This document shows, in pieces, positions 4,777-6,424 of a DNA stretch of 64,000 nucleotides. The position numbers and the translations under genes were made by a program. The first letter of the stretch is position 1, and each line of letters starts with the position of its first letter. Where the stretch lies: NCBI GenBank assembly GCA_028693705.1, contig JAQUUX010000004.1, positions 779 to 64,778 of the forward strand. Direction: 5' to 3'. This DNA comes from Lachnospiraceae bacterium (GTDB taxonomy: Bacteria > Bacillota > Clostridia > Lachnospirales > Lachnospiraceae). A model generated the notes under the pieces. That model did no database searches. It was not told where the DNA came from and was given only the letters and a program-made list of their open reading frames with translations.

Positions 4777-5796
4777 ATGGCTAAAATTTTTTACCAGGAA
4801 GATTGTAATCTGTCTTTATTGGAAGGTAAGACAATTGCAGTTATTGGCTACGGCAGCCAGGGACATGCACATGCATTAAACTTAAAGGAATCAGGATGCC
4901 ACGTCATTATTGGCCTTTATAAAGGATCTAAATCCTGGGCAAAAGCAGAAGCACAGGGCTTTGAAGTATATACATCTGCAGAGGCAGCAAAGAAAGCAGA
5001 TATCATCATGATTCTGATCAATGATGAATTACAGGCAGATCTTTACAAAAATGATATCGAACCAAACCTGGAAGCAGGCAATATGTTAATGTTCGCTCAT
5101 GGCTTTAATATTCATTTTGGAACAATTGTTCCACCTAAGGATGTTGATGTTACCATGATTGCACCTAAAGGACCCGGACATACTGTAAGAAGTGAGTACC
5201 AGGAAGGCAAAGGTGTTCCTTGTCTGATCGCTGTTGAACAGGATGCTACAGGTAAAGCACAGGATCTGGCACTTGCTTACGCACTTGGTATCGGCGGAGC
5301 CAGAGCAGGCGTTCTGGAAACCACATTCCGTACCGAAACAGAAACTGACTTGTTCGGCGAGCAGGCGGTTTTATGCGGTGGTGTTTGTGCACTGATGCAG
5401 GCAGGCTTTGAAACATTGGTTGAAGCTGGTTATGATCCAAGAAATGCATACTTTGAATGTATCCATGAAATGAAACTGATCGTAGATCTGATCTACCAGT
5501 CAGGTTTTGCAGGCATGAGATATTCTATCTCTAATACAGCAGAATTTGGTGATTACGTAACCGGACCTAAGCTGATCACAGAAGAGACCAAGAAAACTAT
5601 GAAGAAGATCCTTTCCGATATCCAGGATGGTACTTTTGCAAAAGAATTCTTGCTTGATATGTCCCCAGCCGGACGTCAGGTACATTTCAAAGCTATGAGA
5701 AAGAAAGCAGCAGAACATCCTTCAGAATTAGTTGGACAGGAAATTCGTAAGCTGTATAGCTGGAATAATGAAGATTCTAAGCTGATCAATAACTAA
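4777..5796 (+). CDS. ilvC: Ketol-acid reductoisomerase
   Basis: [12 protein letters not shown]..., Rossmann motif [14 protein letters not shown] prefer the ATG at 4777 over the ORF-track 4762 because GGAGG at 4764-4768 is 8 nt upstream of it. Confidence 0.92.
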
Positions 5797-6424
5797 ACTG
5801 CAGTTTAGTAACTCAAAAAAATAATGTTTATAATGAGACGGCAATGGTGTGGGTGTGTATCCTTCCATTGCCGTTTACACGTATAAGAGCCGCTACATCA
5901 TTCCACGAAGATACTTGCCCTTTAACGCTAACGGCCCCAATCGCCATCCTGGCTCTAAGGGGCCTTTCAAGCCATTTATGGCTTTGGCATCCATGCCCGG
6001 AATAGCTGGGTTACGACTGGAATGATTAGCGGCTCTAATACGTGCGCTCAGGCAATAGAAGAATACACACCCGCACCACTGCCTGTTCATTACATTCGCT
6101 ATTCTTTTCAAGTTGCCAATCTACAGTTAGTCCAGTCTGTAGCTGAGGCCAGGCTATTGCAAATTTTCAGTTGCCGTAACTGGGGTCTTTGCGCCCCAGG
6201 GCACCGCAAACGGTAGCTTGAAGGAAATAAACATTGCCGTAAAACGAGGTTCAGCCGTGTATCGTATGCGAACAAGCACTGTAAACACGTCTGTACTTAG
6301 TTCGCGTCTTGTGCGAACTTATGTACAGCTACGTGTTTACCGTAGTGAGAACGGGCTTGTGAGCATATGATACACGGCTGAACCGTCACTTTACATCAAT
6401 CTTTATTCCTTTAAACTGCAGTTT
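5795..6424 (+). repeat. Copy A of a non-coding, palindrome-rich repeat element of about 630 bp, unclassified. It could be a structured RNA gene or a non-autonomous mobile element.
   Basis: Bounded by the perfect palindrome AAACTGCAGTTT at 5795-5806 and 6413-6424. Full-length homolog at 51177-51787 and a partial inverted homolog at 9302-9570. Giant imperfect hairpins at 5846-6077 and about 6209-6424. No credible ORF. Confidence 0.9.
6248..6384 (+). repeat. 137-nt imperfect hairpin, the near-invariant core of the repeat element (copy A)
   Basis: GGTTCAGCCGTGTATCGTATGC (6248-6269) pairs with GCATATGATACACGGCTGAACC (6363-6384). Inner stem GTAAACACGT / ACGTGTTTAC, with the apex around TCTTG near 6308. 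The same asymmetric bulges occur in all three copies. Confidence 0.85.

Follow-up and report, generated by a model that had tools for sequence, protein, structure and literature searches.

A mosaic giant-hairpin repeat that abuts stop codons in a Lachnospiraceae genome

We analysed a stretch of 64,000 nt from Lachnospiraceae bacterium (GCA_028693705.1, contig JAQUUX010000004.1, positions 779-64,778 of the forward strand), a MAG-derived sequence that is called the window below. It holds three copies of one family of ORF-less, mosaic giant-hairpin intergenic repeats. The association of these repeats with the stop codons of neighbouring genes is real and beyond chance, and a second genome (locus L005) shows it again. 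Our preferred reading, with a probability of about 0.5, is a REP/BIME- or MITE-like non-autonomous repeat whose tip rebuilds the stop codon, so that insertion there is harmless, and which probably has some preference for gene ends as well.

The sample of the window species is SRR22315505. A genome scan with the module 2 arm led to one other MAG, STD2_226 (JAQUYA01), which carries at least three further sites, at the loci L004 and L005. The sequence covered in the two genomes amounts to 64 kb, 8 kb and 6 kb, and only six independent insertion events from the two MAGs were counted.

The repeat family and its copies

The features of the window are listed below; a strand is given where one applies.

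4777 or 4762 to 5796, plus strand: ilvC, with the TAA at 5794-5796 followed by ACTGCAG
5794-5796, plus strand: ilvC stop codon TAA, the T from the host and both A's common to the element tip AAACTGCAG
5795-5806: 12-nt palindrome AAACTGCAGTTT, left outer end of copy A
5795-6128, minus strand: copy A module 1, a hairpin of about 335 nt with the limits AAACTGCAG and CTACAGTT
5872-6050, minus strand: TwoAYGGAY RNA motif (RF01731) at the tip of copy A module 1, 70.4 bits (gathering score 43)
6129-6207: copy A linker, with small hairpins CTACAG..CTGTAG and CTGGGG..CCCCAG and a TTGCAA palindrome
6208-6424: copy A module 2, a hairpin of about 215 nt from a degenerate AAACGGTAG (6208-6216) to AAACTGCAGTTT (6413-6424)
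6424-6426, minus strand (TTA on the plus strand): LysR stop codon, sharing base 6424 with the palindrome 6413-6424
8815-9303, plus strand: leuD, with the TAA stop at 9301-9303 followed by ACTGCAG
9302-9518: copy C module 2, inverted with respect to copy A
9519-9575: incomplete linker of copy C; its CAGTTT end lies about 80 nt upstream of a NusG_II-domain gene
51170-51172 and 51175-51177, plus strand: TGA stop of a small membrane ORF and an out-of-frame TAA, preceding copy B
51177-51493, minus strand: copy B module 1, 85% identical to copy A
51252-51415, minus strand: TwoAYGGAY in copy B module 1, 98.6 bits (gathering score 43)
51494-51571: copy B linker
51572-51783: copy B module 2, with an intact internal AAACTGCAG at its start (51572-51580) and a truncated right tip
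51795-51823, plus strand: host rplU promoter, TTGACA-17-TATTAT with extended TG, context outside the element

The full unit consists of module 1, which is tipped by TwoAYGGAY, a linker of about 80 nt, and module 2. On the strand leading into the hairpin, the sequence at all the module boundaries is (A)AACTG(C/T)AG. Module 2 of copy A is 97-99% identical to that of copies B and C, and the linker is conserved in all three copies as well as in L004 and L005. The window and MAG STD2_226 show the modules in different combinations. Copy C consists of just module 2 with about 57 nt of linker and has no module 1; its inverted orientation, described in an earlier note on this DNA, agrees with the 94% complementarity that we found to positions 6154-6424. 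L004 has a distinct module 1' with the same termini and a toxin-antitoxin-like (Phd/toxin) pair between element fragments, and L005 has a 70-nt stump of module 1. In copy B, the right tip breaks off (AAACTGC/TGAAC, 51777-51783, the slash marking the boundary here and below) 11 nt before the -35 box of the rplU promoter.

We counted 11 occurrences of AAACTGCAG in the window against 0.57 expected, and 8 of them lie within the three copies. The three further sites are within ORFs (24118, 38854 and 48277) and were treated as chance because no element sequence surrounds them. The host-side sequences bordering the element include ATCAATAACTAA and the end of leuD. Within the elements the only ORFs are short (40-72 aa), and neither a promoter nor an intrinsic terminator was found there above background. 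The linker has some likeness to the ends of IS6-family elements (ACTGTTGCAA), and this likeness is too short to weigh.

As RNA, module 1 of copy A folds at -189.4 kcal/mol on the minus strand (z -11.3) and at -174.2 kcal/mol on the plus strand. In the alignment of copies A, B and L005, 122 pairs are predicted and 7 of these show compensatory changes, and G-U pairs are found on the minus strand only. This pattern of substitution indicates that selection acts on the structure of the module 1 hairpin. For module 2 of copy A, the DNA fold has a z of -10.7, and the two strands fold with equal stability as RNA.

Copies A and B both score above the curated gathering score of TwoAYGGAY. Loop 1 is CAUGGAUG in both copies and loop 2 is CCAGGAUGG, one base short of the consensus, and the P1 stem shows compensatory changes between the copies, for example GAGCCGC/GCGGCUC versus GACCUUC/GAAGGUC. 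According to the original description of the motif, its closing P1 stem “is often very large” (Weinberg et al. 2010; RF01731). Rfam models TwoAYGGAY over about 168 nt as an RNA of unassigned role, whereas here it forms the tip of a hairpin about twice that long in a dispersed repeat with defined termini. No other Rfam family was detected in the window at the gathering threshold or in positions 51100-51900 at E ≤ 1. A group II intron or a ribozyme-based retroelement that targets terminators was rejected, with no Rfam intron or ribozyme match.

A metagenome scan for the double-loop pattern of TwoAYGGAY returned 120 loci, none of them with CTGCAG termini; most were high-GC repeats from soil, marine and other sources, for which the automated estimate of hairpin edges is too noisy. 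Related gut TwoAYGGAY hairpins (L086, L100, L049 and L012) are 260-310 nt or longer and have other termini. They lie 17-270 nt from stop codons, and abutment as a general trait of TwoAYGGAY hairpins was rejected.

The same hairpins bear on a functional explanation of the placement, which we regard as quite unlikely. The modules would act as RNA, either as a TwoAYGGAY small RNA or as a 3'-UTR structure with the hairpin base under the terminating ribosome, and selection would keep the copies that abut stop codons. The compensatory changes and strand-specific G-U pairs of module 1 are typical of functional RNA, TwoAYGGAY is a curated RNA family, and the elements sit where terminators are expected. 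However, the TwoAYGGAY strand is antisense to both neighbours in copy B and, in copy A, to ilvC, the gene that module 1 abuts. Copy C abuts the leuD stop without any module 1, module 2 lacks strand asymmetry, and the missing promoter and terminator signals and the distances of the related gut hairpins from stops also count against this explanation.

Stop codons at the element ends

The ilvC and leuD stop codons both adjoin an element start, and the coordinates and frames that the earlier note gave for them hold. It was also right about the 1-nt overlap between the LysR stop and the far palindrome of copy A, a junction that is the same in an independent Logan unitig made by a different assembler. 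Copy B had been placed 4 nt after the TGA of an 89-aa ORF and directly behind a TAA. The TGA and the TAA are both there, but the ORF has 133 aa from its first ATG and the TAA is out of frame with it. The AAACTGCAG of copy B (51177-51185) shares one A with this TAA. In L005 the end that abuts a stop codon reads ..AAG CTG TGA/ACTGAAGTTTAGCAAC (TGA/ACTGAAG).

The rule of stop abutment is strong, not absolute. The far end of copy C (CAGTTT/GCAG, 9570-9575) has no stop codon. The right ends of L004 and L005 are intact and lie 120-155 nt upstream of gene starts; thus, targeting of stop codons is not obligatory, a point against the framing of the earlier note.

Of the five ends that face a gene 3' end, four lie at offset 0 and one at a distance of 4 nt. 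With uniform placement in a spacer of 30-100 nt, the probability of at least four in five at offset 0 is below 1 × 10−5. We also calculated a null model of TA targeting plus selection, which admits insertions only at TA sites outside coding sequence or within stop codons, the latter being 7.8% of the sites. Under this model, 3 of 6 events have a p-value of 0.008, and 4 of 9 ends one of 0.003. The share of stop-codon TAs could be higher than 7.8% because crude gene calling may overcount the non-coding sites, and raising it to 11% or 15% gave p-values of 0.012-0.047.

Coincidence, or an assembly artefact in which the repeats were mis-joined, is extremely improbable. The window belongs to a MAG, and two other sequences, L005 and the Logan unitig L126, terminate within the element. 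However, the chance probability under the uniform null is very low, the gene order across copy A is the same as in a relative, a second assembler reproduces the LysR junction, and the pattern is seen again in a different MAG.

We then considered which side supplies the stop codon. A T precedes each of the seven outer ends, which read TAAACTG, TAAAACTG or TGAACTG, whereas the internal junctions are mostly preceded by C (module 2, GGCACCAC/AAACTG; others, ggcc/AACTG and similar). The junction is thus a hybrid, in which T(A) of the host and A(A) of the element together spell TAA. Alternatively, the T may belong to the inverted repeat and not to the host. The flanking genes are full length by their profile positions (IlvC 2-333 of 335, LeuD, TIGR02084, 1-155 of 156, LysR 2-296 of 298, L005 cupin 35-130 of 130), so C-terminal truncation by an element-borne stop was rejected. 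Among the matches listed, 120 of 120 IlvC homologues end, like the window protein, in two Asn before the stop (..NN, mostly KLINN), and the ilvC stop therefore lies at its native position.

History of the copy A site and a proposed mechanism

A relative with the same ilvN-ilvC-LysR-leuC-leuD order is without the element and has a TAA, a 72-nt spacer with a terminator, and a TTA. It is a different species (IlvC 92% and LysR about 55% identical), and its element-free site is informative at genus level. Nothing of the spacer and its terminator is left in the window, where the element alone lies between the two stop codons. Because this spacer is wholly absent, copy A cannot be one simple insertion. 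On whether the TAA is of host or element origin, a question of the earlier note, the relative has a TAA of its own, and in the window we assign the T to the host and the AA to the element.

Simple duplication models do not explain copy A. A single TA insertion was rejected, as the implied empty site AAC-TA-TTGCTG loses the conserved ilvC stop, and a 3-nt TAA/TTA duplication was rejected because the flanks are reverse complements of each other and not direct repeats. A TA..TA duplication is clean only for module 2 of L004; copy A would need unequal tips (AA versus AAA), and copies B and C each have one end that is truncated or atypical for this comparison. No same-species pair of filled and empty sites was found in the collections searched, the nearest LysR homologue being only 57% and the nearest IlvC 93% identical. 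LysR and the L005 hydrolase matched at 100% identity only themselves, with the next matches at 57% and 65%, and exact-protein look-ups of IlvC (two start sites), LeuD and L21 of the window returned no record.

Our reading of a non-autonomous repeat may be explained as follows. If the element inserted at the T(A) of a stop codon TAA or TAG, an in-frame TAA would be restored and the protein left unchanged, so that the insertion would be harmless. Most of the other positions in a compact genome would lie in a coding sequence, promoter, leader or terminator, and selection would remove insertions there. A preference of the mobilising enzyme for A/T-rich gene ends probably contributes, since the enrichment exceeds the prediction of TA targeting plus selection. 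At copy A, which now fills the whole spacer from stop to stop, the native bidirectional terminator would have been displaced in a second step, either by two stop-codon insertions with later recombination, or by an adjacent deletion reaching from one end of the element as far as the TA of the second stop. Presumably the flanking transcripts now have these hairpins as their 3' structures.

Two kinds of enzyme are candidates by sequence grammar, a TA-duplicating DDE transposase of the IS630 type and an HUH Y1 transposase of the RAYT/IS200 type, the latter because of the CT-G(T/C)AG-hairpin order at the boundaries. Among the window genes tested, and in L004 and L005, we saw neither a transposase or recombinase gene nor a protein-coding element that shares the termini. 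The composite element gave no blastn match in phage and plasmid collections, and of four element patterns scanned against viral contigs two were absent and none gave a usable result. This reading stands on six events in two MAGs and no same-species filled and empty pair, its TA duplication is clean at a single module, and it leaves the excess over the TA-plus-selection null unexplained.

This excess is one of the points in favour of active gene-end targeting, which we consider possible, if rather unlikely. Here the machinery would read the stop context or a terminator hairpin in single-stranded DNA, insert at the stop and replace the terminator. The offsets of the gene-facing ends and the p-values of 0.003-0.008 accord with it, as do the two ends of copy A on stop codons and the loss of the 72-nt terminator spacer. 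However, the intact right ends of L004 and L005 lie in gene-upstream regions, the far end of copy C is off any stop, the host sequence is conserved only at a single T, and the sample is very small. We know of no DNA enzyme that reads a stop codon as such. Unlikely, and more so, is a transposition system of gut Clostridia that is directed to stop codons or the 3' ends of genes and exchanges the native terminator for giant hairpin modules, of which one contains TwoAYGGAY.

The earlier note had proposed either a target that includes a stop codon or the survival of insertions that spare ORFs. The association behind both proposals is confirmed, but the two cannot be separated from each other. Target preference and survival of ORF-sparing insertions probably both contribute.

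Relation to known systems

GTAG-tagged REP/BIME repeats, which are mobilised by RAYT (TnpAREP) Y1 transposases, resemble the element in being palindromic, ORF-less and intergenic, in forming mosaic arrays with linkers, in lying mainly between unidirectional or convergent genes, and in having G-T pairs in their stems. GTAG REPs have termini that frequently supply the stop codon of the flanking ORFs (PMC3733652). Stop-codon abutment is thus already known for REP repeats, and the earlier opinion that precise gene-end placement is without precedent in ORF-less units was too strong.

TnpAREP cleaves at a CT beside a GTAG-footed hairpin (PMC8266576), and the order of CT, G(T/C)AG and hairpin foot at the element boundaries corresponds to this cleavage site and its GTAG guide. 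Nearly every boundary reads A-CT-G(T/C)AG-hairpin, a likeness of grammar read from the sequence; the degenerate exceptions are AAACGGTAG of copy A (6208-6216) and AAACCGCAG at the right end of module 1' in L004. At 19 boundaries the tag is GTAG in 8, GCAG in 10 and GAAG in 1. The element was not classed as a classic REP, a palindrome of 20-40 nt with a GTAG tag at its foot, as its hairpins of 215-335 nt are about ten times longer and its tag is mixed. Moreover, the TAA of the element lies 3 nt outside the tag, whereas REPs use the TAG inside GTAG, and no RAYT gene was seen among the window genes tested, in L004 or in L005.

The element can also be compared with TA-duplicating MITEs, namely RUP/IS630-Spn1 of Streptococcus pneumoniae and Correia/NEMIS of Neisseria. 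It has inverted-repeat termini ((A)AACTGYAG), only short ORFs, a small size and several dispersed copies. RUP and Correia/NEMIS are likewise ORF-less, with terminal inverted repeats and long hairpins. They are intergenic, lie near genes and are co-transcribed with them, and they are single units of 107-155 bp, whereas the element is a 630-nt mosaic. RUP inserts at TA target sites (PMC2229807), and every intact outer end of the element can be read as TA + (A)AACTG. Unlike in RUP, the TA duplication of copy A is not clean, and an IS630-type partner with matching ends was not found. The passages of PMC2229807 covered here make no mention of RUP or Correia abutting stop codons.

Very improbable is a cassette-like, site-specific recombination, in which AAACTGCAGTTT would be the core site of a recombinase and modules, sometimes with genes such as the Phd/toxin pair of L004, would be shuffled as in integrons. 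One short palindromic motif does stand at every module junction, several module combinations exist, and the L004 pair is flanked by element fragments. Integron attC sites are folded, imperfect palindromes at cassette boundaries, in which the inverse core and the stop codon of the cassette gene often overlap. However, the element ends, ..TAAAC and GTTTA(G/T), miss the core consensus RYYYAAC/GTTRRRY with a pyrimidine where a purine is required, and neither an integrase nor another recombinase gene was seen among the window genes tested, L004 and L005; an attC or gene cassette was rejected. The modules of 215-335 nt are two to four times larger than attC sites, which measure 57-141 nt. The neighbours ilvC, leuD and rplU are housekeeping genes, and ilvC and leuD lie in a gene order shared with the relative; they are thus not cassettes.

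If the preference for stop codons is real, a selfish repeat would have found the one harmless spot in a compact bacterial genome, where it rebuilds the stop and replaces host terminators. The orphan TwoAYGGAY motif is now placed in a dispersed, probably mobile giant hairpin, which offers a concrete way to study it. Should a stop-homing system be true, this 16-year-old motif would gain a role, since it would form the structured core of a mobile module at 3' ends. It may be asked which enzyme or RNA-binding protein recognises the two conserved loops, and whether its active form is RNA or folded single-stranded DNA. Repeats of this kind interrupt metagenome assemblies and can mislead the annotation of 3' ends and small RNAs in gut Lachnospiraceae; L005 and the Logan unitig L126 are two cases of interruption within the element.

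The repeat unit and its junctions with genes

The repeat unit is a mosaic rather than one palindrome. Its parts in copies A (between ilvC and LysR), B (before rplU) and C (after leuD) are listed below.

Parts of the repeat unit in the window
Module 1: 5795–6128 (copy A), 51177–51493 (copy B); hairpin of ~335 nt
Linker: 6129–6207 (copy A), 51494–51571 (copy B); ~80 nt with small hairpins
Module 2: 6208–6424 (copy A), 51572–51783 (copy B), 9302–9518 (copy C, inverted); hairpin of ~215 nt

Copy C contains only module 2 and ~57 nt of linker, and module 2 is 97–99% identical between the three copies. 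The tip of module 1 matches the Rfam motif TwoAYGGAY (RF01731) on the minus strand (70.4 and 98.6 bits; gathering score 43). We aligned module 1 of copies A and B with that of a related element on L005, a contig of Lachnospiraceae MAG STD2_226. RNAalifold predicted 122 pairs, 7 of them with compensatory double changes, and many G-U pairs in this alignment were specific to the minus strand. The predicted RNA fold of module 1 was also 15 kcal/mol more stable for the minus than for the plus strand; the strands of module 2 had no such asymmetry. Structural selection acts on module 1. No promoter or terminator signal in the elements exceeded background. The linker has a second palindromic hexamer, TTGCAA (window 9560–9580, 6160–6175, 51525–51540; L004:890–905, on another STD2_226 contig). 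On the minus strand, copy C has AAACTGTTGCAA at its far end, similar to the GGTTCTGTTGCAAAGTT ends of IS6-family elements, but over too short a stretch to be judged.

The earlier note stated that all three copies start at, or within 4 nt of, a stop codon, and its coordinates were correct at every site on rereading the sequence. The TAA stops of ilvC (5794–5796) and leuD (9301–9303) stand at the element start, each followed by ACTGCAG. The small ORF 5' of copy B stops with TGA at 51170–51172, and an out-of-frame TAA (51175–51177) before this copy shares one base with AAACTGCAG (51177–51185). At the other end of copy A, the terminal palindrome (6413–6424) overlaps the minus-strand LysR stop (6424–6426) by one base, again as noted. 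The window has 11 sites of AAACTGCAG where 0.57 would be expected, and 8 of them are within copies A, B and C; the remaining three are within ORFs, without surrounding element sequence, and look like chance.

All module boundaries were aligned to find the conserved element end, which is (A)AACTG(C/T)AG, then NTT. T was the preceding base at each of the seven outer ends that were intact or recognisable.

Sequences at outer ends
TAAACTG: left ends of copies A and C; right ends of the L004 and L005 elements
TAAAACTG: right end of copy A; left end of copy B
TGAACTG: L005 stump

At internal junctions, by contrast, the preceding base was mostly C (e.g., GGCACCAC/AAACTG and ggcc/AACTG), which suggests that the A's of TAA come from the element and the T (or TA) from the flank. 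IlvC, LeuD, LysR and the L005 cupin each reach the end of their NCBIfam profiles. Two C-terminal Asn residues are present in 120/120 IlvC homologues among the matches listed, and likewise in the window IlvC, while the C-termini of LeuD and LysR are at most one residue from those of orthologues in a relative. The flanking genes are thus untruncated, with stops at, or at most one codon from, their native positions, and the element starts inside the stop codon or directly after it.

Strength of the stop-codon association

Four of the five ends that face a gene 3' end are at offset 0 (ilvC, LysR, leuD and the L005 cupin), and the fifth is at 4 nt (copy B). The precise gene-end placement claimed earlier holds for these, but not for the right ends on L004 and L005, which precede gene starts by 120–155 nt, for the far end of copy C, ~80 nt short of the following gene, or for the right tip of copy B, which is truncated. 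The earlier interpretation is partly supported, as a stop association with exceptions. The copy B tip is directly followed by a near-consensus rplU promoter (TTGACA-17-TATTAT, extended TG) with a ~85-nt leader (window:51795–51907), so that 11 nt separate the end of copy B from the -35 element of a ribosomal-protein operon.

Under uniform placement within a 30–100-nt spacer, P was < 1 × 10−5. A more generous null allowed only TA sites that were non-coding or in stop codons, with stop TAs at 7.8%, and gave P = 0.008 for events (3/6) and 0.003 for ends (4/9). If the crude gene calls include too many non-coding TA sites, the stop-TA share might be 11% or 15%, for which P = 0.012–0.047. On these numbers, the excess of ends at stops (n = 6 events, two MAGs) is real.

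The copies are best read as a family of non-autonomous palindromic repeats with a stop-rebuilding tip, in which an A-rich tip and a host T(A) would restore TAA. Insertion into a stop codon would then be silent, and most other sites would be selected against in a genome that is ~89% coding by crude gene calls. Since the excess persists under the null that combines TA sites with selection, there is probably also a genuine preference for gene ends rich in A/T.

We compared the ilvC locus with a relative (L127; IlvC 92% identical) of the same order, ilvN-ilvC(+)-LysR(-)-leuC-leuD. There, 72 nt with a bidirectional intrinsic terminator separate the ilvC TAA from the LysR TTA (L127:3521–3592). In the window this spacer is absent, and a 630-nt composite spans stop to stop. 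Genuine homing to stops, in which the element replaces the terminator, is unlikely. A site lacking the element, of the kind that the earlier note proposed to reconstruct from relatives, was found at genus level. One TA insertion cannot explain copy A: the implied empty site, AAC-TA-TTGCTG, would destroy the conserved stop of ilvC. Copy A thus needs a second step, which might be two stop-codon insertions that recombined later, or an adjacent deletion reaching the TA of the second stop. The element was absent from two further relatives, in which the neighbouring genes differ. The L127 terminator has the stem GCCATCCGG..CCGGATGGC, similar to the loop-stem GCCATCC(T)GGC in the second hairpin of TwoAYGGAY, probably by coincidence.

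Known repeat families and candidate enzymes

The earlier note held that gene-end placement was unknown for ORF-less units. This is overstated, since the termini of GTAG-tagged REPs "often provide the stop codon" to flanking ORFs; these REPs are located between unidirectional and convergent genes and have G-T pairs in their stems (PMC3733652). Their behaviour is the closest known to the stop abutment of the window family. However, the window hairpins are 215–335 nt rather than 20–40 nt, their tags are mixed GTAG and GCAG, the stop codon at their ends is a hybrid TAA, located 3 nt outside the tag, and one module carries TwoAYGGAY. Because they lack the defining size of REPs, we did not file them as REP members; the family is placed in neither a REP nor a MITE family.

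No transposase or recombinase gene was found among the window genes tested or on L004 or L005. One candidate enzyme would be a TA-duplicating DDE transposase, with a precedent in RUP paired with IS630-Spn1 (PMC2229807); TA duplication is clean in module 2 of L004 only. The other would be an HUH Y1 transposase of RAYT/IS200 type. Nearly all boundaries consist of CT followed by G(T/C)AG and the foot of the hairpin, which is the sequence grammar of the TnpAREP cleavage site with its guide (PMC8266576).

Related elements and TwoAYGGAY hairpins elsewhere

Relatives were sought with a module 2 arm in one genome per species. Only STD2_226 matched, with four relevant pieces.

Element pieces in STD2_226
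L005:1–563: composite, 95% identical to copy A, at a different locus and cut by the contig end
L004:~890–1530: module 1' (different hairpin, same termini), then linker, then module 2
L005:5846–5916: 70-nt stump, left end of module 1
L004:40–145: linker piece and ~30 nt of module 2 left arm, on one side of a Phd-like/toxin-like gene pair

The L004 pair, a Phd-family antitoxin gene (174–542) and an unannotated 119-aa ORF (542–901), lies between element fragments; on its other side, a degenerate end, CTGCAATAAA, contains the second ORF's stop codon. L004:40–901 may represent a module that carries cargo or has been disrupted. Copy A is 95% identical to the L005 composite but only 85% to copy B of its own genome, which suggests that at least two sublineages are older than the split of the two hosts, or moved between hosts. 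The window contig is the sole record of its species (LysR 100% identical to itself alone, next match 57%). The composite had no match in phage and plasmid collections, and two of four element patterns had none in viral contigs; three lone viral-contig matches of a 16-nt module 2 arm look like chance.

Scanning metagenomes for the double-loop pattern of TwoAYGGAY gave 120 loci among the matches listed. In low-GC loci L086 (~495–800), L100 (~11860–12170 and further out), L049 and L012, the motif is the tip of a near-perfect hairpin of 260–310 nt or more, with termini unlike those of the window elements. At least L049 is from a human gut metagenome. Because L049 and L086 carry nearly the same hairpin in different flanks, TwoAYGGAY in general seems to form the core of giant hairpins that are dispersed as repeats. 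The 260–310-nt size agrees with the original description, in which the P1 stem "is often very large". A full-text literature search on the motif found, in the portions of text returned, no link to any giant-hairpin repeat that is dispersed and has defined termini.

Other contigs have several TwoAYGGAY-like units of high GC each (L010:1000–2200, L013, L030, L035, L042, L056, L061), arrayed in tandem at a ~455-nt period or paired in inverted orientation 300–800 nt apart. In L010, REP-like repeats with GTAG surround them, and the intergenic region is Pseudomonas-like, between a putative LysR-type gene and a putative lexA. Many further hits (L006–L008, L014, L028, L050, L075) are tandem ~55–60-nt units carrying GCCATCCATGGC.
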